NCBI GenBank assembly: GCA_937951635.1
Contig: CALFBO010000056.1
Coordinates: forward strand, 1 to 39,032
DNA: 39,032 nt
DNA from: Candidatus Saccharimonadia bacterium
Lineage (GTDB): Bacteria > Patescibacteriota > Saccharimonadia > Saccharimonadales > CALFBO01
Direction of reading: 5' to 3'
Each line of letters starts with the position of its first letter. Position 1 is the stretch's first letter. Shown in pieces: positions 1,502-30,446 of this stretch. The notes under the pieces were generated by a model. That model ran no database searches, was not told the DNA's origin, and worked only from the letters and a program-made list of their open reading frames with translations. The position numbers and the translations under genes were made by a program.

Positions 1502-2037
1502 GTTGTTCAGGGGCTTTAAGTTCAAAACAATAACTAGTATTTCTTTGTTTTTGGAGTGCCTGACGAGGCGCCGTGCTTTGTTTTTCAATGGAGCGTACTT
1601 AACAGCTAAAGAAAAACAAAACGTATCTTTTTAAACATGCCTGTATGGCCATAAAACTCGTTCTCTTCTTCGACATATCTAAAGATATGACTTAAGTCGA
1701 GTAACGAGTCTTCTGTCTCACCCAGATCACGATCAAAAAATGACACGTTTTGTATTCCTTTGGCTATAACAAGTACGTGTAATGAAAACTAAGTGCGGGA
1801 ACGAAGAAACCTGGCTGGAGTCCGGCTGTGCCGGTGTAGGCCTGATTGTTCAGGGGCTTTAAGTTCAAAACAATAACTAGTATTTCTTTGTTTTTGGAGT
1901 GCCTGACGAGGCGCCGTGCTTTGTTTTTCAATGGAGCGTACTAGCAAGTACGTGTAATGAAAACTAAGTGCGGGAACGAAGAAACCTGGCTGGAGTCCGG
2001 CTGTGCCGGTGTAGGCCTGGTTGTTCAGGGGCTTTAA
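1502..2037 (+). repeat. tandem array of a 175-nt structured non-coding module (X family): XA 1502-1844 (interrupted), XB 1845-2019, partial third head 2020-2037
   Basis: Direct comparison: 1502-1599 equals 1845-1942 except for the first base, and 1771-1844 equals 1946-2019 exactly. The 18-nt unit head recurs at 2020-2037. Nested helices are present. Wobble pairs are T:G/G:T on the + strand. Confidence 0.9.
1600..1770 (+). other. 171-nt insertion in the apical hairpin loop of X copy XA; carries a Y-family structured module (about 1616-1753)
   Basis: XB reads CGTACT-AGC-AAGTACG. XA reads CGTACT-[171 nt]-AAGTACG. The insert folds on itself: ACAAAACGT 1616-1624 / ACGTTTTGT 1745-1753, CTCGTT 1657-1662 / AACGAG 1703-1708, and hairpin CATATCT-AAA-GATATG at 1674-1689. 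Confidence 0.8.
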
Positions 2038-2050
2038 AAACAAAAAAATA

Positions 2051-2125
2051 TGGTATCCCCGGCTGGAATCGAACCAACATCTAATCCTTAGGAGGGACTC
2101 GTTCTATCCGTTGAACTACAGGGAC
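2051..2125 (-). tRNA. tRNA-Arg (anticodon CCU)
   Basis: The reverse complement folds as a 75-nt cloverleaf. Acceptor GUCCCUG/CGGGGAU (G1:U72 wobble), D arm GUUC-AACGGAUA-GAAC, anticodon arm AGUCC-CUCCUAA-GGAUU (anticodon CCU), 4-nt variable loop, T arm GUUGG-UUCGAUU-CCAGC, discriminator A, encoded CCA. Confidence 0.9.
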
Positions 2126-4178: not shown

Positions 4179-5108
4179 ATGATATGCATAATGCCAATAA
4201 CTCTTTCAGACATCATTCTAGAATTCCTAGAACACATGGAAATCGAGCAAAACCGTGCTCAAAACACTATAAGAAATTACGACAGATACCTGCAAAGACT
4301 AATTGAATTTGGCGACGACATACCAATCAAAGATGTCGATGCAGAACTTGTAAGAAAGTGGCGGCTTTGGCTAAACCGCCTCGTCGACGAACAAGGCAAT
4401 AATCTCTCCAAAACAACTCAAAACTACCACCTAATTGCACTACGAGGCCTGCTTAAATACTGTGCAAAAAGAGACATTAAAACCCTTTCGGCCGACAAAA
4501 TTGAACTTGCCAAAACCCGGCGGAGCAAAGTCAGTTTTCTTAGCAACGAAGAAGTGTATCGTCTTATTAATGTGCAAAACAAAAGCAGCTCTGCGCACAG
4601 AGATAGAGCCATTGTGGAGCTGCTCTTTAGTGGAGGCTTGCGTGTATCCGAAATTGCCAGCCTTAACCGCAGCGACATAAACCTAAAGCGCAAAGAGTTC
4701 ACCGTGCGCGGCAAAGGCCAAAAAGATCGTCCAATTTTCATTAGTGATGGTGCCGCAAATGCCATAGATACATACTTAAGCCACAGGACCGATAACCTAC
4801 AGCCACTATTTATAAGTACTTCGAGAAACACGCTCCCCAGCAACGACGGAGATTATAGAAGATTAAGCCCAAGAAGCATTCAAAGAATAATATCAAAGAG
4901 AGCTCGTTTAGCAGGAATCACAAAAAAAGTTACGCCCCACACCTTGCGCCATTCGTTTGCAACAGATCTCCTAGGCAATGGGGCAGATCTTCGTAGTGTT
5001 CAAGCTTTGCTTGGACACAGCAATGTATCTACCACACAAATCTATACCCATGTTACCAACCCCGGCCTTAAGAATATTCATAAAAAGTTCCACAACAAAC
5101 ATTCATAG
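4179..5108 (+). CDS. tyrosine recombinase, XerC/XerD family
   Basis: N-terminal SAM-like core-binding region (IEQNRAQNTIRNYDRYLQRLIEF). C-terminal catalytic block HTLRHSFATDLLGNGADLRSVQALLGHSNVSTTQIYTHV, with the R..HxxR..Y pattern. An alternative ATG lies at 4191. Confidence 0.85.
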   Translation: MICIMPITLSDIILEFLEHMEIEQNRAQNTIRNYDRYLQRLIEFGDDIPIKDVDAELVRKWRLWLNRLVDEQGNNLSKTTQNYHLIALRGLLKYCAKRDIKTLSADKIELAKTRRSKVSFLSNEEVYRLINVQNKSSSAHRDRAIVELLFSGGLRVSEIASLNRSDINLKRKEFTVRGKGQKDRPIFISDGAANAIDTYLSHRTDNLQPLFISTSRNTLPSNDGDYRRLSPRSIQRIISKRARLAGITKKVTPHTLRHSFATDLLGNGADLRSVQALLGHSNVSTTQIYTHVTNPGLKNIHKKFHNKHS

Positions 5109-6402: not shown

Positions 6403-7346
6403 TAATTCCTCGTTGTAGCTACGGTCTGCAAACGTACCACCTTACAAAATTCAGCTCTTCCACCCTGGGTGCAAATTGGCTGCTTTATTCCGCTGCCGTC
6501 GTCTTTTACACCAGTATCGGGGTTAATCCCCCTATCCATAAATATCGAATCGTTCCTAACCCATGATTCTGTCCAGGCAGTGGTATCTAGCCATCTTGGT
6601 TTGTCGGCTGTGGCTACAACTAACGTTACCTGATAACTTGTTCCACTTGCAGAGCCCGGGGCAGATATTTTTTCGACGTCCAAATCATGGATTCTCAGCT
6701 CCTGAGACAGTACAGATGTTGTGGTGCCCGAGTATAAGAAACTAAAGTTGTCGTGGCAATCTGCAATTGTTCCGGATGGGTCAAGGTCTAGTGTGTCTGT
6801 TTTCATCGCGGTTATTTCTTCCAACCCGTGAACACTGCCATCCACATTGTAATAAATTAGATGCTCACGACCCACACTGTCAGGCCATTCATTGTTCCAG
6901 TTTCCACCAGACCCGTCATCAAGTGAAGGTGAAGGCGAGTCAATTACATTATATTCGTTCCAGGCAAAACGTCTATTGGCGCTGCACAGCCGCAAGACTG
7001 TACCGTCGGTAACCGATCTGGCTTCGTTCACCCACTCTTCGTCACCATCGCCGTCTTCGTCTATAAATACGTACTCCCCGTACGTAACGCCCACTGCCGG
7101 AGATTCGCCGTACTCGTCATAAACTATTAGTGGCCCTTCAGATGAACGAATTGTCTTAACTATGTCGTCCATCAATACTCTCGCTGCATCCTGGACAATT
7201 TTGGTGTTGTAGCCCTTGGTGTACTGTCTATTAATTCTAACAAACGAGTTAATAACAACCACCAACAGAAGACTAAAGAAAACGGTTGCGAATATTAACT
7301 CTATGAGCGTAAATCCTTGTTCTGTTTTCTTGTTTAATCGAATCAT
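6402..7346 (-). CDS. minor pilin with prepilin-type N-terminal cleavage/methylation domain (PilW-like by position)
   Basis: MIRLNKKTEQG|FTLIELIFATVFFSLLLVVVI is the class III signal: G-1, F+1, E+5, then a hydrophobic helix. Confidence 0.65.
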   Translation of the reverse strand: MIRLNKKTEQGFTLIELIFATVFFSLLLVVVINSFVRINRQYTKGYNTKIVQDAARVLMDDIVKTIRSSEGPLIVYDEYGESPAVGVTYGEYVFIDEDGDGDEEWVNEARSVTDGTVLRLCSANRRFAWNEYNVIDSPSPSLDDGSGGNWNNEWPDSVGREHLIYYNVDGSVHGLEEITAMKTDTLDLDPSGTIADCHDNFSFLYSGTTTSVLSQELRIHDLDVEKISAPGSASGTSYQVTLVVATADKPRWLDTTAWTESWVRNDSIFMDRGINPDTGVKDDGSGIKQPICTQGGRAEFCKVVRLQTVATTRN

Positions 7347-9680: not shown

Positions 9681-9861
9681 CTTCAAGACCCCAATCACAA
9701 AACTAAATCTGAACAGATAAGCTTTAAGTGTAGGTGCGTATAGCTTATCTGAGCTGTTCTTTGGTAGCCACAGCTGCTTATGAACAGATTGGGTGAGTTA
9801 GATATGTACCTGCCCCGAAGGTCTATATGACTGGGTTAGTTTTGTGATTAGGGTCTTCAAG
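9681..9861 (-). terminator. compound 3'-UTR hairpin closed by a 26-bp stem, immediately after the pilin stop codon
   Basis: CTTCAAGACCCCAATCACAAAACTAA (9681-9706) pairs with TTAGTTTTGTGATTAGGGTCTTCAAG (9836-9861), enclosing 129 nt. Inner helices: CAGATAAGCT/AGCTTATCTG, AGCTGT/ACAGCT, AATCTG/CAGATT. One C:A mismatch on + becomes G:U on the minus strand. The stem starts 2 nt after the stop at 9864. There is no clean U-tract. Confidence 0.5.
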
Positions 9862-9863
9862 CT

Positions 9864-10343
9864 CTAACCTTCTGCACAGTAAGTTCCGCCACCCTCTAGC
9901 ACGACGGCCACTGCAAAAGATCTAGTAGATGTACTGGACGCATCTATCCAGCCATCCGCACAACTTGCTGCAAATTTATAAAATATCGGTTCTTTGTCGC
10001 CGCTCTTAAATTTTACGGCTGCTTTTTCGGGGAGGGCAGCTCTATGTATGTAATAATCTTGCACAATGTCAGAACCTGCATAGCCGCCAGTGAGAACTTG
10101 TTCTTCTAATTGTTTGCCATTAGCTGGGGCCTCGCCCCCGCTATTCGTCTTGTAGCTCAAAGTAGCGGCAACCATTCTGCCAACAACCGAGCGTCTAGCC
10201 TCGTCACGCTCAGACTTTTGCAAAGACGGCAATGCCAAGAAGACTGCCAAGAATATGAACCCCGCTATGGCCAAAACTAAGACCACCTCGATGATAGTGA
10301 ATCCTTGTTTGTTTGAGTTTATTTTCACTTCAATCTTTTTCAT
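9864..10343 (-). CDS. type IV pilin (PilA-like), paralog 1
   Basis: MKKIEVKINSNKQG|FTIIEVVLVLAIAGFIFLAVFLALPSLQKS is a class III signal with E+5. A C-terminal Cys pair (SCADGW...GGGTYCAEG) fits a pilin D-region disulfide. Confidence 0.85.
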   Translation of the reverse strand: MKKIEVKINSNKQGFTIIEVVLVLAIAGFIFLAVFLALPSLQKSERDEARRSVVGRMVAATLSYKTNSGGEAPANGKQLEEQVLTGGYAGSDIVQDYYIHRAALPEKAAVKFKSGDKEPIFYKFAASCADGWIDASSTSTRSFAVAVVLEGGGTYCAEG

Positions 10344-10378: not shown

Positions 10379-10545
10379 TCTATAGACAAAACATTTTAGC
10401 TTGCGCCAATAAATTATTGATGATTGTGGTCCAAGAATCACGTTCTTCGAACGAGGCATATCTGTAGATATGGCGAGAGAGGAAACGTGGTTATTGGGCT
10501 GCAGGGGCGATAATTTGGCGCGAGTCAGAATGTTTTGTCTATAAA
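10379..10545 (+). ncRNA. candidate structured RNA/DNA element, Y family (stand-alone copy)
   Basis: Nested helices: TATAGACAAAACATT (10381-10395) / AATGTTTTGTCTATA (10529-10543); GCTTGCGCCAA / TTGGCGCGAG(T)C; ATTATTG/CGATAAT; CCAAGAATCACGTT (10431-10444) / AACGTGGTTATTGG (10484-10497); apical CATATCT-GTA-GATATG (10457-10472). About 5 T:G/G:T wobbles on + would be A:C on the minus strand. Homologous to 1616-1753. Confidence 0.5.
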
Positions 10546-11156: not shown

Positions 11157-11331
11157 ACTTTTATCTCTTTCTACCTTTCGTTTTACAACTTTAATAAGGC
11201 TTATGTTTATATAGTGAAATTGTACTGACCTAAGGCAATAAAAGCAAGCATTTATAGGTAATTATACCGGTAATGCTTAAACACTTTCCTTTATGGGACT
11301 AAGGACCTACTCTACAAAAGGCTCTAACTAC

Positions 11332-11845
11332 TTTTGGAGTTGCTGCAATTCAAAACACCTTTTCACACCATGAAGATGATTTTCCAAGAAACATTCTTAA
11401 ATTCCCCAAATTCTCAGTCCGGACTTCGCCGGGTGTAGGATCTAGAGCTAAAGCTATTAAAAGTTTGGCTCTGCCGGTGGAAGTCTTAGCTAGTCCAGAA
11501 GGTTTAAAAAAGGAAATTAATGAGTGGCTAGGCCCCTTAGGCTACTTTTCGGTCTGTCTGACGAGGAGCAAAAACTAGCCCGCAGTGGAGCGTACTACTG
11601 TACGTGTAATGAGGACTAGTTTTTAGTGACGAAGACAGCTAGGCTGAAGCTGGCTTCGCTGACCAGGGAGACTGCTATTCAAAAGAGTTGAAAAGAATGA
11701 GTTCTGAGCTGATTTTCAGAATATTTGATAAGGCCCTAGTGCTTGTTTTCTAGCGGAGTGTACTTAAACAGTACATGGAGTGAAAATAAGCGCTGGCAAC
11801 GCAGAAGAGCTAACCCTGCGAGCCTGGTTTCGCCAAGCGGAGGGG
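11332..11845 (+). repeat. array of three diverged X-family modules: X0 degenerate 11332-11440, X3 11551-11668, X4 11725-11845
   Basis: Blocks shared with XB: TGAYRAGG (11559-11566, 11726-11733); GGAG plus hairpin CGTAC-TACT-GTACG / TGTACT-TAAAC-AGTACA; TGKARTGA; ACGMAGA. The long helix is kept by different sequences: X3 CAAAAACTAG 11569-11578 / CTAGTTTTTAG 11616-11626, X4 CTAGTGCTTGTTTT / AAAATAAGCGCTGG. X0 keeps TTTTGGAGTTGCTG, CAAGAAAC and the tail AGTCCGGACTTCGCCGGGTGTAGG (11416-11439). Confidence 0.6.
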
Positions 11846-11887
11846 TTGTCTCTGGTTCAAATGTTTTGAAAACAGTTCAAGTTCAGA

Positions 11888-13093: not shown

Positions 13094-14161
13094 TTAATTC
13101 CTCATTAGCCTGTCTAGCTCTTCAATATCTATGGCGTAATTACGAGCCTCGTCATAAGTAATGGTGCCAGCATGAATTAGGTTTACTAGTGTTTTATCCA
13201 TAGACTGCATACCATGGTCGGCTCCAGTTTGAATTACGGCATCTAGCTGATGAGACTTCCCTTCTCGAATAATATTTCGAACTGCAGGTGTAGCTACTAG
13301 TATTTCTGCTGCCACTACTCGCCCACCGCCTATAGAAGGGATCAGTCGCTGCGACACTATGGCCTGGAGTATATTAGAAAGCTGGGCTCTAATCTGGGGC
13401 TGCTGGTGAGGCGGGAATACGTCTATCATACGATCTATCGACTGTGCTGCCGAGTTGGTGTGCAGGGTTGCAAAAACCAAGTGACCAGTCTCTGCAATCG
13501 TAATAGCTGCTGCAATTGTTTCAAGGTCACGCATTTCGCCAATAAGCACCACGTCTGGATCTTGACGCAAGCTTGAACGCAGCGCCGCCGAAAAAGAAAA
13601 TGTATCATAGTGGACTTCTCTTTGAACAACCACAGAATTTTTAGATTTGTGAGTAAACTCAATTGGATCTTCAATGGTTATTATGTGCTCTGCCCTATCG
13701 GTATTGACCTTGTCGACTATCGCTGCTAGCGAGGTAGACTTACCAGACCCAGTTGGACCCGTAACCAAAACTAGGCCCCTGGGTAGTTCGGCAAAGCCTT
13801 TTGTTACTTCGGGCATGCCGAGCTCTTCGATGGTCTTTATTTCATTAGGAATTAGCCTTAACGCCGCAGCCAAGTTGCCTCTTTCATGGTATGCATTAAC
13901 ACGAAATCGCCCCAAATCACCAAACGCAAACGAGAAATCGAATTCTTTGTCTTTTAACAAAATCTGTTTTTGATCGTCGTCTAAGATGGCAAATACCAAA
14001 GACTCGACATTCGCTTCGGTAAGAACTGGCGCCCCTGCAACAGGTTTAAGTGATCCATCAATACGCAACATCGGCGCCAAGCCAACCTGCAAGTGCAAAT
14101 CAGACGCCCGTTTTGTTATCACGTCTTCCAAAAGTAGTTCTATTCTAAGTTCTTGTGCCAT
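13094..14161 (-). CDS. pilT: twitching-motility retraction ATPase PilT
   Basis: 355 aa. Walker A GPTGSGKSTS, Asp box and HLVFATLHTNSAAQSIDRMIDVF, with the typical PilT size and no N-terminal GspE-N extension. Confidence 0.9.
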   Translation of the reverse strand: MAQELRIELLLEDVITKRASDLHLQVGLAPMLRIDGSLKPVAGAPVLTEANVESLVFAILDDDQKQILLKDKEFDFSFAFGDLGRFRVNAYHERGNLAAALRLIPNEIKTIEELGMPEVTKGFAELPRGLVLVTGPTGSGKSTSLAAIVDKVNTDRAEHIITIEDPIEFTHKSKNSVVVQREVHYDTFSFSAALRSSLRQDPDVVLIGEMRDLETIAAAITIAETGHLVFATLHTNSAAQSIDRMIDVFPPHQQPQIRAQLSNILQAIVSQRLIPSIGGGRVVAAEILVATPAVRNIIREGKSHQLDAVIQTGADHGMQSMDKTLVNLIHAGTITYDEARNYAIDIEELDRLMRN

Positions 14162-14181
14162 TATTCACCCTCTCTCAAGCA

Positions 14182-16011
14182 TTACGCACTATCTATCGCT
14201 GCAACACGGTTTACTTCTTCTAGAGTAGTCATACCGTTTATGGCCTTAAAGTACCCGTCTTCTCGCATAGTAATCGTACCTTGCGCCTGGGCAGCTTTTT
14301 GAATTTCGGAACTCGTAGCTCTCTTTATAATTAGCTCTTCTATATGCTCTGTAACGTCGAGCACTTCGTAAAGTCCGAGTCTTCCTTTATAGCCCCCAGG
14401 TGTAGACTTGGTGTCCTTACCCTTGAATAAAGTATAAGCGTTTTGGGTACCTAAGGGCAAGCTTTCATATCCAAGATCATTGGAGACCTTTTTCTGGCTG
14501 GCAGTGTCTTTTGGCAAAAGGTGCCCAACTGTCTCGTGAATGGCCTCTGTTTCTACCTGTGTTGACTGATAGGCTTCTTTCTTGTCGGTTATTCTTCGCA
14601 CCAGACGCTGACCTATTACAGTGTTTACGGTCGAAGCAATGAGGAATGGTTCTATACCCATATCCAGAAGTCTTGGCAGCACACCTGCAGCCGAATTGGT
14701 GTGAAGCGTAGAAAACACTAAATGCCCAGTAAGGGCAGCCTGCACAGCCAGTGTTGCCGTTTCGGCGTCTCTAATTTCACCCACCATAACTACATCTGGG
14801 TCTTGACGCAAAATTGATCGTAGTCCACCAGCAAACGTCAAACCAACATCGGCATTAACTTGTATCTGGTTCACGCCTTCCATTTTGTATTCGACAGGAT
14901 CTTCCAGGGTTACGATATTAATGCTTTCGTCTTTAATTTCTGAAAGCAGCGCATACATTGAAGTAGACTTTCCAGAACCAGTAGGCCCACTAGTAAGAAC
15001 CATGCCATTGGGTTTCTTTATTCCTTTTCTGATAGCTTCTAGAGCGTGGCCCACATATCCCATGTCTTCAAGGTGTAAGCTCGTACCGCTTTTATCTAAA
15101 ATTCTTATCACTACTTGCTCGCCCCACACAGTTGGAGATATCGATATACGCAGGTCAATGTCTCGACCTGCAACACTAACAGCAAATTGACCGTCCTGCG
15201 GAATGCGGTGCTCATCTATCTTTAAGTTGGATAAAATCTTTATTCGGGACACCAATGCTGGTTCGGTAGCTTTGGGTAGTCGCATGATTTCACGTAAGAC
15301 TCCGTCGACACGAGTTCTAATCTTCAACTCACTTTTTACCGGTTCCATATGTATGTCAGAAGCTCGGTTTGTAACTGCGTACTCCAAGACCGCGCTAAGC
15401 GCCTTGGAAATTGGTGAGTCTTCAACAATTGTCTTAATTCTTTTTTCTTTTTCTTTTTCGACCTTGTCGTCGCCTGATACAAGACTATTCGGATCGAAAT
15501 TCAAAGACGAACCTGCACTGGAGCCGCCGACTCCAGCTAAAGCTTCCGACAAGTCACTACCCTCAAGGTGTGTGCTGTATTGCTTGATAACGTGTCGTAT
15601 CCCGCCCTCGGAAGCCATATATACACTTATGGGGCGTCCGATCTTTTTGGATAAGAAGTCTGCAGCCTGCACATTGTCGGCGTCAAGCATTGCAACAACT
15701 AGGCGACCCTTCATTTCACCTAGAGGAACTGCCATGTAGCGTTCTGCCAGCCCCTTTGACAGTAATTTAAGAATTTCGACGGGTATGAGAGCATTGGATA
15801 AGTCTACGTATGGAAGCTTAAGGACTTTGGCCGTAATACGGGTTAGGTCCTCATTTGTAATAACTTCTTCACCCAATAAATAGGCAAATAAAGGTTGACT
15901 ATCTGCCCGAGCTTTGTCTTCAAATTCCTGAAGCTTATCTTCAAGTATTAGACCCTCTTCTACGAGGAGCCCTTTGGCTAGTTTTTGATTTTCCGCTGAT
16001 AGAACACCCAT
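14182..16011 (-). CDS. pilB: type IV pilus assembly ATPase PilB (GspE family)
   Basis: 609 aa. N-terminal GspE-N-like domain (LPYVDLSNALIPVEILKLLSKGLAERYMAVPL), Walker A GPTGSGKSTS, and GHLVFSTLHTNSAAG. Confidence 0.9.
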   Translation of the reverse strand: MGVLSAENQKLAKGLLVEEGLILEDKLQEFEDKARADSQPLFAYLLGEEVITNEDLTRITAKVLKLPYVDLSNALIPVEILKLLSKGLAERYMAVPLGEMKGRLVVAMLDADNVQAADFLSKKIGRPISVYMASEGGIRHVIKQYSTHLEGSDLSEALAGVGGSSAGSSLNFDPNSLVSGDDKVEKEKEKRIKTIVEDSPISKALSAVLEYAVTNRASDIHMEPVKSELKIRTRVDGVLREIMRLPKATEPALVSRIKILSNLKIDEHRIPQDGQFAVSVAGRDIDLRISISPTVWGEQVVIRILDKSGTSLHLEDMGYVGHALEAIRKGIKKPNGMVLTSGPTGSGKSTSMYALLSEIKDESINIVTLEDPVEYKMEGVNQIQVNADVGLTFAGGLRSILRQDPDVVMVGEIRDAETATLAVQAALTGHLVFSTLHTNSAAGVLPRLLDMGIEPFLIASTVNTVIGQRLVRRITDKKEAYQSTQVETEAIHETVGHLLPKDTASQKKVSNDLGYESLPLGTQNAYTLFKGKDTKSTPGGYKGRLGLYEVLDVTEHIEELIIKRATSSEIQKAAQAQGTITMREDGYFKAINGMTTLEEVNRVAAIDSA

Positions 16012-26610: not shown

Positions 26611-26672
26611 AATCTGCAAGCAAACACAAGCCCTATAGGACAACAGCCGTAACCACTTAACTGCCCAAACAA

Positions 26673-26817
26673 CCAATAAAAGAGAGGTCCCGACACCCCA
26701 GAGCTATGCTCAAGGGGTTGGCGTCCCATCTGCCGAAGGCTGGGAGGGGGATCACGAAGCATAAGCGAAGTCTAAGGGGGAGGAGTCACCTCCTCCTTAA
26801 TAGCGAGTGTTGTGAGC
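26673..26817 (+). repeat. Z element copy 1 (non-coding, ~145 nt), 3' of ychF
   Basis: Aligns with the reverse complement of 30231-30366. The core is CCCCAGAGCTATGCTCAAGGGGTTGGCGTCCCATCTGCCGAAGGCTGGG versus CCCCAGAGCTTTGCTCTAGGAGTTGGCGCCCCGTCTGCCGAAGGCCAGG. Flanking shared blocks are CCAATAA, AGGTC, AAGC, GAGTCAC, CTTAATA and TGAG. Confidence 0.7.
26776..26799 (+). terminator. GC-rich hairpin inside Z1; likely terminator shared by the convergent genes
   Basis: GGAGGAG-TCAC-CTCCTCC (26779-26796) followed by TTAAT on +. It sits between the convergent ychF (+) and the 26839-27717 gene (-). Confidence 0.5.
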
Positions 26818-26838
26818 AGTTACCAACAGCCCAACTAG

Positions 26839-29626: not shown

Positions 29627-30001
29627 CTATTTCTTAGTTTCGTCTTCTTTTGGCTTTGATTCTTCTGAAGAGTCTGTATTGCTAGAATCTTCGGCTTTTT
29701 CTTCAACCTCTTCAATTTCGGGACCAGGCTTAACAATCAGATACCTCAATACTTCGTCGGTAATATTAAGGATTGACTCCACCTTGGCCACTGACTCTGA
29801 TTTCAGCTCGATGTCGTAATATACATAGACCGCGTGGTCTTGTTTGTTTATAGAATAAGCTAGTTTGCGCTTACCCCAGTTGTCTTGTTTGATAATTTTG
29901 CCATCGTTGTCCGAAAGTAACTTGGCAATTTTCTTTAATGGTTTTTCAATATCCATCTCTAAGTCTGGATGGTAAAGAACCGTCATTTCGTACTTGTTCA
30001 T
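29627..30001 (-). CDS. rpsF: 30S ribosomal protein S6
   Basis: MNKYEMTVLYHPDLE... with a strong GGAAGGAG 8 nt upstream of the ATG at 30001. The longer track ORF (to 30049) has no Shine-Dalgarno and a non-homologous extension. Acidic C-terminal tail. Confidence 0.9.
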   Translation of the reverse strand: MNKYEMTVLYHPDLEMDIEKPLKKIAKLLSDNDGKIIKQDNWGKRKLAYSINKQDHAVYVYYDIELKSESVAKVESILNITDEVLRYLIVKPGPEIEEVEEKAEDSSNTDSSEESKPKEDETKK

Positions 30002-30183
30002 ACTATGAACTCCTTCCCTTGGAACCGATGATTTAGTCTCGGCGCCCACGACTGAATCGCAAGCAGGTTATGTATTAATATCTAATCCAAGCTTACTCTA
30101 GCTACAGCGAGTCTAGAGTTTCTAGGCAACTAAGTGCCTGAAGTCTTAAAATATTTAAAACATCAAACTCACAAGTTATCAAA

Positions 30184-30212
30184 ATTATACACAGTTCACC
30201 CCTGTTGGTCAA
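30184..30212 (-). promoter_or_regulatory. sigma70-type promoter of the rpsF-ssb-rpsR(-efp) operon
   Basis: On the minus strand: TTGACC (30212-30207), exactly 17 nt of spacer, TATAAT (30189-30184). The predicted leader to the rpsF ATG is about 175 nt. Confidence 0.6.
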
Positions 30213-30230
30213 CTTACTAATTTGCAACCT

Positions 30231-30366
30231 CTCACTGCCTTCGTTATTAAGTAGGAAGTGACTCGTCCCCTGGTTTTGCTTACGCTCAAACACCCCCTGG
30301 CCTTCGGCAGACGGGGCGCCAACTCCTAGAGCAAAGCTCTGGGGAGCGAGACCTATTTCTTATTGG
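30231..30366 (-). repeat. Z element copy 2 (inverted relative to copy 1), 3' of the RodZ-like gene and upstream of the rpsF promoter
   Basis: See Z1. The reverse complement of this interval aligns with 26673-26817 over essentially its whole length. Confidence 0.7.
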
Positions 30367-30446
30367 CTGCCTGGGTAGCTAGTGTGTCGCACAAGAGCAT
30401 GTTAATATACAAAAACACATATACAGCCAAAGTAAAACAAAAATCG

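Follow-up and report, generated by a model that had tools for sequence, protein, structure and literature searches.

Directly behind a gene for tRNA-Arg(CCU), a 39,032-nt contig from a Candidatus Saccharimonadia bacterium (CALFBO010000056.1, assembly GCA_937951635.1; this whole stretch is called the window below) carries two copies of a 175-nt unit, X, and the start of a third (positions 1502 to 2037). Is this duplication real, and if so what has been duplicated? We find that 1502-2037 is a genuine, recent tandem duplication of a structured non-coding unit. By its sequence and predicted fold, the core of X can be placed as a diverged copy of a strand-specific hairpin repeat that is multi-copy in some genomes of the candidate phyla radiation (CPR, or Patescibacteria). 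The reading that we favor, with a probability of about 0.6, takes X as one copy, recently duplicated, of a structured repeat that proliferates and probably works as an antisense RNA.

The array beside tRNA-Arg

The tRNA gene (2051-2125, minus strand, with an encoded CCA) was called by ARAGORN and by the Rfam tRNA model (60.8 bits), and its 3' end faces the array. Repeat families, alignment and folding define two plus-strand units: XA (1502-1844), which is the 175-nt unit plus a 168-nt insertion, and XB (1845-2019), which is intact and runs from a head through a core hairpin to a tail hairpin. On the same strand there follows the beginning of a third unit, 18 nt long (2020-2037), which is recognized by its identity to 1502-1519 and ends 13 nt from the 3' end of the tRNA gene. 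The original prediction described just this layout, with XB equal to the two halves of XA except at the first base, and the coordinates and the alignment agree with it: 1502-1599 differs from 1845-1942 only in that first base (G versus A), and 1771-1844 matches 1946-2019 without a mismatch. Since the heads are 343 nt apart and the tails 175 nt, XA carries 168 extra nucleotides. A 23-nt direct repeat, made up of the third head and the preceding GCCTG, brackets the array (1497-1519 and 2015-2037), and a third copy between the units (1840-1862) differs only by base A1845. Tandem Repeats Finder did not report the array, probably because the insertion breaks its period. The array occupies the entire spacer between tRNA-Arg and the next minus-strand gene, bPH_2 (860-1414, minus).

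Could the array nevertheless be an assembly artefact? On that account there is one X copy, and either two strain alleles, with and without the 168-nt insertion, have been chained together or the repeat has been mis-resolved. The window is indeed a metagenomic contig, identical copies and variants that differ by one indel resemble a strain bubble, and the gene product read across the junction has no record elsewhere. Logan, an independent assembly (k = 31) of run ERR9287625, gives two contigs with the flanking genes (L001 and L010), and both break inside the repeat. The positions of the breaks, however, speak for a real junction between units. The contig from the tRNA side stops at window position 1990 and the one from the bPH_2 side at 1532, and both ends are the last 31-mers that still hold the discriminating bases G2020 and G1502. 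Such ends imply branches in the graph, with the tail followed by G and by A and the full head preceded by G and by A, and these branch points mean that the tail-A-head junction is present in the reads. A single X copy would not branch the graph at 1532/1533 or 1989/1990 because the 18-nt third head is shorter than k. In addition, the contigs pass G1502 and G2020 unbranched on their unique sides, which places A1845, the base peculiar to the XA/XB junction, between a tail and a head. The unit also forms an older array at 11.3-11.9 kb, described next, whose copies are diverged and hence unambiguous. An artefact as the sole cause of the array is thus unlikely, and of the explanations offered in the original prediction, very recent duplication or homogenization or else an assembly problem, it is very recent duplication that stands. 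The identity of XA and XB shows that such arrays change copy number over very short time scales.

The older array has three units and lies between pilC and pilA. Its middle unit contains a diverged X core (11547-11648, plus) that aligns with XB at z 13 and matches R1, one of two models of the hairpin family, with 29 bits (E 2e-5). The third unit spans about 11690-11880 and ends some 8 nt from the pilC stop codon; the apical part of its core (11752-11786, plus) aligns with XB at z 11 and scores 22 bits with R1. The remaining unit (11290-11445, plus) is decayed, and only its head-like and tail-hairpin parts are recognizable. These alignments, together with the matches to R1 and to the second model, R2, confirm the suspected homology of the diverged copies to X, and they make tandem organization a property of the X unit. 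The tail hairpin CCGG-CTGTG-CCGG, folded at 1997-2009 (plus) in XB and repeated at 1822-1834 in XA, likewise has diverged counterparts at 11417-11439 and in both units at 11.5-11.9 kb.

Neither array has an equivalent in syntenic relatives. The window is a chromosomal piece of Saccharibacteria-like character; the best relatives of its PilC are 76% identical, and those with names are Saccharimonadales. Two related loci (L003 and L004) keep the gene order, and searches with the models and comparison of the spacers found no X-like sequence in them; their pilC-pilA spacers measure 131 and 103 nt, versus 730 nt here. A comparison of the tRNA-Arg(CCU) flank among relatives had been proposed as a check of the original prediction, and it shows that X is not conserved there. 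As the syntenic relatives are without X at both sites, X is a lineage-specific addition at both. The L004 spacer behind tRNA-Arg(CCU) (13876-14376) is filled by three long hairpins, one with 31-nt arms (14138-14233). They were considered as relatives of X and rejected, being unrelated and without strand bias; they do make the position behind tRNA-Arg(CCU) one where, in this lineage, palindromic DNA has repeatedly landed or been retained.

XB folds to -58.5 kcal/mol (z -2.7) on the plus strand versus -40.0 on the minus strand, and XA folds as an extended hairpin of -105 kcal/mol (z -4.2). All three helices foreseen from the letters are present, the apical hairpin CGTACT-AGCA-AGTACG (1937-1952) and the tail hairpin among them. 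The description of the first helix (1915-1927 with 1960-1972) needs amending, for it contains, in addition to the U·G and G·U wobbles, a single U·U mismatch not mentioned before. The open reading frames (ORFs) across the array had been dismissed as by-products of the repeat, and rightly so: none of five local ORFs has a Pfam match, and an exact-product look-up for the one tested, an 84-aa product (1789-2043, minus), found no record elsewhere. The proposed promoter TTGCTT-16-TATTCT (1468-1495, plus) fared less well. The sequence is there, but with 7 of 12 consensus positions it falls below the scan threshold and is no better than chance; the scan found no excess of promoter-like sites in the array region, and the candidate overlaps a minus-strand TAGAAT that might serve the bPH_2 gene. 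A terminator scan flagged only an internal hairpin with a weak T-rich tail (1556-1571 and 1899-1914), short of an intrinsic terminator, and nothing on the minus strand behind tRNA-Arg, where no hairpin with a U-run was seen.

XA is in two halves because a 168-nt element (1600-1767, minus) has inserted into the apical loop of its hairpin P3. Where XB reads CGTACT-AGC-AAGTACG, XA reads CGTACT-TAAC-[ AGCTAAAG...CTTTGGCTA ]-TAAC-AAGTACG. The TAAC on either side (1600-1603 and 1767-1770) may be a 4-bp target duplication, or there may have been no duplication and one G-to-A substitution, to judge from the empty XB site T-AGC-A, which is one base shorter. The insertion has inverted arms of 29 nt (1604-1632 and 1737-1765) that are 83% complementary, as expected of the terminal repeats of a miniature inverted-repeat transposable element (MITE). 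It is related, in reverse orientation, to a long hairpin in the window, I2 (10381-10543; z 9.3), and folds better on the minus strand (-67.4 versus -45.5 kcal/mol), whereas X, I2 and a further long hairpin, I3, fold better on the plus strand. The arms, the kinship with I2 in reverse orientation and the opposite strand preference identify it as an element in its own right, palindromic and MITE-like, which lies inverted with respect to X. R2 does not match it significantly, and the window encodes no transposase. XA and XB thus show one unit with and without an inserted second hairpin element, a natural before-and-after comparison.

A strand-specific hairpin family

Is X confined to this genome? 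A pattern drawn from the window copies (GGAG-hairpin-UGKARUGA ... ACGMAG) was used to scan genome and metagenome collections. A first metagenome scan with a narrow pattern gave no matches. Further pattern scans gave a contig in a Wallbacteria metagenome-assembled genome (L002), two AT-rich loci (L006 and L009) and one of 65% GC (L008), plus two chance matches in coding regions. The real matches have in common features that lie outside the pattern: GAGG directly 5' of helix P2, complementarity within P2, (G/A)ACGAAG after its 3' strand, and an outer helix with a conserved purine-purine mismatch. The resulting layout, about 100 nt long, is P1-GAGG-P2-purine-rich 3x3 loop closed by G·U-P3-ACGAAG-P1'. 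EF-P homologs place L009 as a Moranbacteria-like CPR member, and related Moranbacteria-like loci hold up to five copies per 20 kb. In all, 16 copies are known outside the window. The L008 copy (6785-6960, minus) lies between aldehyde dehydrogenase and short-chain dehydrogenase genes and has a 16-bp perfect outer stem (CAGGTGTCGCCTCCAG / CTGGAGGCGACACCTG), which extends the hairpin to about 175-190 nt.

Covariation supports the fold. Among five sequences, 92.8% of the cells are paired and 18 of 30 pairs are changed on both sides, versus 30-49% in slid controls; among the 16 non-window copies, on an alignment fitted to the model, the figures are 92.4%, 24 of 30, and 31-51%. The pair next to the loop is C-G in most family copies and U-A in X and the 11547 copy, a compensatory change. 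The family has no match in 717 kb of unrelated viral DNA used as a negative control. In viral contigs two specific patterns gave nothing and a loose pattern gave at least 120 chance matches, and none of 80 loci among the matches listed fits R2. Rfam 15, searched at gathering thresholds and at E up to 10, matches the elements in L002, L006, L008 and L009 nowhere; within the window, at the array and at 9.6-11.9 kb, it returns only the tRNA and chance miRNA- or snoRNA-like matches on long hairpins. Literature searches found no description of such a repeat. They did bring up TIGR-Tas arrays, which are short-spacer guide arrays and unrelated. A small peptide was also considered and set aside: a 19-codon ORF (MQFE...YME, translated by eye) is present in L006 and L009, but the frame is lost in L002 and X and the start is not conserved in other subtypes.

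The core hairpin of XB (1884-1985, plus; in XA, 1541-1599 plus 1771-1810) has the family architecture and matches R1 and R2 with low scores. GAGG (1908-1911), which is not in the search pattern, and AACGAAG (1975-1981) directly flank P2 (1912-1927 with 1960-1974). AAU-GGAG (1930-1936), P3 (1937-1952) and UGUAAUGA (1953-1960) then form the apical module, in which two base pairs are followed by a 3x3 purine loop (GGA / GKA) with its closing G·U pair and by a P3 of 5-6 bp. The plus strand of the core folds to -37.6 kcal/mol and the minus strand to -21.3. R2, which was built without window sequences and whose E-values are rough, scores 24.3 bits (E 2e-4) at 11547-11648, 18.9 bits (E 0.0081) at 11752-11786, 18.7 bits (E 0.01) at the I2 core (10417-10510) and 17.4 bits (E 0.023) at XB (1900-1995); R1 matches XB at 1907-1981 with 18.5 bits (E 0.03-0.04).

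Pairing in the family is strand-specific: G·U pairs number 52 and A·C only 10. In all 16 copies the forward strand has the more stable fold, by 10.7 kcal/mol on average, and GC skew puts this folded strand opposite the G-rich gene-sense strand. Deamination bias, under the established model of replication and transcription strand bias, would give the opposite asymmetry; the G·U excess runs contrary to mutational bias, which argues for selection on the folded single strand. Orientation and position follow a rule as well. Thirteen of the 16 non-window copies are antisense to the flanking genes, as the X arrays are, and in L011 the orientation of the hairpin flips along with gene direction. For 12 of the antisense copies the upstream gene is known, and 10 of these hairpins have their 3' end 0-22 nt behind its stop codon. 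X conforms, being on the opposite strand, with the array by tRNA-Arg and the older one by pilC both ending at the distances given above. Because family members sit behind varied upstream genes, the original view of X as a local feature tied to the tRNA has to be given up.

The family also turns over. Which of the rpsF-ssb, ssb-rpsR and rpsR-efp spacers hold a copy varies among L009, L011, L013 and L015, and between genomes with an EF-P 80-87% identical to that of L009. Copies fill successive spacers of this rpsF-ssb-rpsR-efp region in the Moranbacteria-like genomes (L009, 3187-4601; L011, 9262-9953; L013, 8942-9043; L015, 9334-9997), and the loop subtype, like the occupancy, differs in each. 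Two Moranbacteria loci with 63-66% EF-P identity (L017 and L018) have no copies.

Several family copies adjoin rpsO, rpsF or rpsR, and in L006 a sense-oriented copy precedes the rpsO start codon by 46 nt. The basal loop of the family (for instance L009 4514-4522 with 4581-4588) resembles helix 22 of E. coli 16S rRNA (660-667 / 739-748; L139), CG-AGGA-G ... GA-CGAAG in the element versus CG-UAGA-GG ... CU-GGA-CGAAG in the rRNA. Helix 22 is the region bound by S15 and by S6:S18. A role as an rRNA mimic is a weak lead: the family does not preserve the G·U pair of helix 22, and models of small-subunit rRNA and of S15 leaders fail to match.

A possible antisense RNA and its alternatives

How might such an array arise and act? 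The second X copy could have come about by unequal crossing-over or replication slippage between the 23-nt repeats, and the same process would earlier have built the three-unit array at 11.3-11.9 kb, while the family as a whole would spread non-autonomously. Because pairing is kept on one strand only, it is most likely a plus-strand transcript, antisense to the neighboring genes, that is the active form. This RNA may start in the divergent side of the promoter region of the downstream gene, and would then form a stable hairpin at the boundary of the upstream gene, where it might serve as an insulator, a stabilizer or a protein-binding module. The tRNA-Arg gene would simply be the upstream gene in this instance.

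A number of points count against this interpretation. X scores just 17-18 bits with the family models (E 0.02-0.04), for which reason its membership rests on shared architecture and on the stronger 11547-11648 copy. It is without the GAGCAnCGnArC and GUnGCGGA loops and the P2b helix of the Moranbacteria copies and has a continuous P2 instead, as does L002; with junctions and apical module kept and a plain helix in place of these loops, X looks on sequence like a reduced, diverged member of the family. The family was seeded from X, which brings some circularity, and the fitted alignment behind the 16-copy covariation has been mentioned. Loci were chosen around known copies, so that statistics of density and context are biased. 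Neither a target-site duplication nor a mobilizing enzyme was found for the ~100-nt hairpins, and 'mobile' is read from patchy presence alone. A single metagenome assembly is the source both of the exact copy number (two) and of the order in which the copies stand. Finally, the plus-strand RNA is a prediction from sequence, and the scans brought out neither a convincing promoter nor a terminator for it.

Does X work at the RNA level at all? The family could instead be a purely DNA-level selfish repeat of the MITE, REPIN or ERIC type, a hairpin moved by a transposase encoded elsewhere, in which case there is no RNA role and the strand asymmetry reflects recognition of single-stranded DNA. Its patchy distribution, its high copy number where present, the variable occupancy of orthologous spacers, the nesting of one hairpin element within another in XA and the extension of outer stems as inverted repeats would all fit. 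Yet the ~100-nt hairpins are not flanked by target-site duplications, no locus encodes a transposase, and copies in the same genome are 60-85% alike with compensatory changes rather than near-identical. The folded strand is, by GC skew, the template of both leading-strand synthesis and transcription, and in the standard replication-fork model such a strand is not normally exposed as single-stranded DNA; in L011, moreover, orientation tracks the direction of transcription. We consider a purely DNA-level repeat doubtful. If an RNA is made, could it be the other strand that matters? From the tRNA to the next minus-strand gene the spacer consists wholly of the array, and a transcript of that strand necessarily contains the reverse complement of X. 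This might belong to tRNA-Arg as its terminator or 3' trailer, or to bPH_2 as its 5' leader, co-transcribed with its neighbors. But the minus strand folds 16-18 kcal/mol worse, its wobbles become A·C mismatches, it has no hairpin with a U-run, and the relatives carry unrelated sequence in that spacer, all of which makes a minus-strand element extremely improbable.

Two further explanations address how the array was formed. The 23-nt direct repeats that bracket the array and separate its units, the adjacent tRNA 3' end and a Phage_integrase/SAM-like tyrosine recombinase gene 2 kb away (4179-5108) would suit a miniature integrative element inserted repeatedly beside the tRNA, in the manner of elements that exploit Xer. 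The recombinase, however, is syntenic in L003 and L004, both of which are without X, and thus looks like a housekeeping Xer. The 23-nt repeat falls outside the tRNA gene and duplicates none of its 3' part, as the repeat of a tRNA-targeting element would, and it is not palindromic like a dif site. X is also tandem at pilC-pilA with no tRNA nearby, and other family members stand behind many unrelated genes; site-specific integration is therefore very unlikely. The other explanation is a self-cleaving, rolling-circle unit with a hammerhead-like core (CUGACGAG ... CGAA); the array would be a DNA copy derived from a multimeric small circular RNA, and its transcripts would be cut to unit length. It is true that XB and the 11547-11648 copy have their long hairpin set between CTGACGAGG and ACGAAG, that partial units lie at the array ends, and that a tail-to-head junction could equally derive from a circle. 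On the other hand no ribozyme family matches even at E up to 10, and CUGA is not conserved, L006 and L009 having UUCGAGG and the 11690-11880 unit UUGAUAAGG. A hammerhead core would have an A next to GAA, paired with the U before the cleavage site; here that residue is G, and stem III and the cleavage-site context are missing. Since the core is not conserved in the family and no model matches it, the hammerhead reading was rejected, and a rolling-circle origin is exceedingly improbable.

A bolder version of the antisense reading is possible, and we advance it tentatively: the X core may belong to an undescribed, ancient class of CPR structured RNA, placed antisense behind the upstream gene in tens of copies per ~1-Mb genome and acting at the RNA level. 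It would, for example, stop or stabilize divergent antisense transcripts at gene boundaries, or bind a protein through its conserved purine loops. If so, tandem arrays like XA-XB are recent copy-number changes of a functional module. CPR genomes are about 1 Mb in size, and their non-coding RNA and repeat content is almost undescribed. A family that keeps its fold on one strand, is common to Saccharibacteria-like and Moranbacteria-like organisms and recurs behind the upstream gene, on the opposite strand, in spacers of ribosomal-protein, cell-shape and pilus operons would be, in bacteria with the most reduced genomes, either a new class of regulatory RNA or a genomic parasite of a new type.

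In the window the hairpin repeats surround a duplicated type IV pilin gene, and pili of this type play a central part in the episymbiotic life of Saccharibacteria. The genes present include those for PNPase, RNase J, FtsK, YchF, PilB-PilT-PilC, two pilins, PilD, the Xer-like recombinase, BacA and nucleoside diphosphate kinase (NDK), besides tRNA-Arg. Each of the two pilin genes is followed by a near-perfect long hairpin, I2 (10381-10543, plus; 163 nt) or I3 (9681-9861, plus; 181 nt); L003 and L004 have one pilin gene each and no such hairpins. I2 folds to -81.9 kcal/mol on the plus strand versus -47.3 on the minus strand, and its core match to R2 is a weak one with a CGAGG / GCGAGAGAGG loop variant. 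I3 lies 2 nt behind the stop codon of the pilin gene at 9864-10343, folds to -81 kcal/mol on the plus (antisense) strand versus -64, and does not match R2.

Two other features of the window deserve mention. The NDK gene product (2181-2801, minus) is 206 aa long and matches its Pfam model in two separate stretches; the L004 ortholog has 193 aa. This suggests an insertion or extension relative to typical nucleoside diphosphate kinases of ~140 aa. Farther along, two non-coding segments (26612-26838, plus, and 30050-30446, minus) have about 170 nt that are mutually similar, inverted and 3.5 kb apart, with the second copy just upstream of an ORF (29627-30049). The best arm (26696-26747 versus 30293-30344) is 85% complementary and its differences look compensatory (CCCAUCUGCCGAAGGCUGGG vs CCCGUCUGCCGAAGGCCAGGGG). 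Rfam gives no match to this pair. It could be a further case of two related structured RNAs, or the two copies could mark the ends of a 3.5-kb segment that is invertible or mobile.

Comparison with known systems

Which known elements does X resemble? As in the hammerhead ribozyme (Rfam clan), X and one diverged copy have a long hairpin set between CUGACGAG and CGAA, but the core CUGANGA ... GAAA is not found, most family members lack CUGA, and Rfam gives no match.

Integron attC sites are a second case. In these too structure is conserved over sequence, one strand folds, and it does so opposite the upstream ORF; the sites lie directly behind the stop codon and occur in arrays. Unlike attC sites, the X family is without RYYYAAC / GTTRRRY boxes, and its hairpin ends read (T/C)(G/A)TTTGAG ... 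CCAAA(T/C)(A/G). No integron integrase is present, and the sole recombinase is syntenic in relatives without X. The flanking genes are core genes (rpsF, ssb, rpsR, efp, mreB, pilC, tRNA) rather than cassettes, and the conserved parts are internal loops.

Sibling small RNA genes (Sib/QUAD, LhrC1-5, the NsiR1 arrays, PrrF1/2) are, like X, structured units of ~100-200 nt set head to tail in intergenic regions, and their older arrays diverge while the fold is kept. X units differ in having no repeated promoter or terminator, no visible conserved single-stranded seed and no partner toxin ORF, and the X family, known here from sequence, is interspersed at many loci instead of one.

The ERIC/IRU, Correia, Rickettsia palindromic and REP/REPIN elements are, like the X family, imperfect palindromes of ~100-180 nt in the intergenic spacers of operons. 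They too are many-copy where they occur, patchy among relatives, prone to nested insertions and found just behind genes. For the X family, in contrast, neither TA nor any other target duplication and no RAYT or transposase partner is seen, the analysis covering 39 kb of this genome and 20-kb pieces of the others. It further differs from these elements in being common to distant CPR classes (Saccharimonadia-like and Moranbacteria-like) and to at least one GC-rich contig, in having copies that have diverged with compensatory changes around conserved, asymmetric, purine-rich internal loops, and in its strong bias to pairing on one strand, which is mostly the antisense one.

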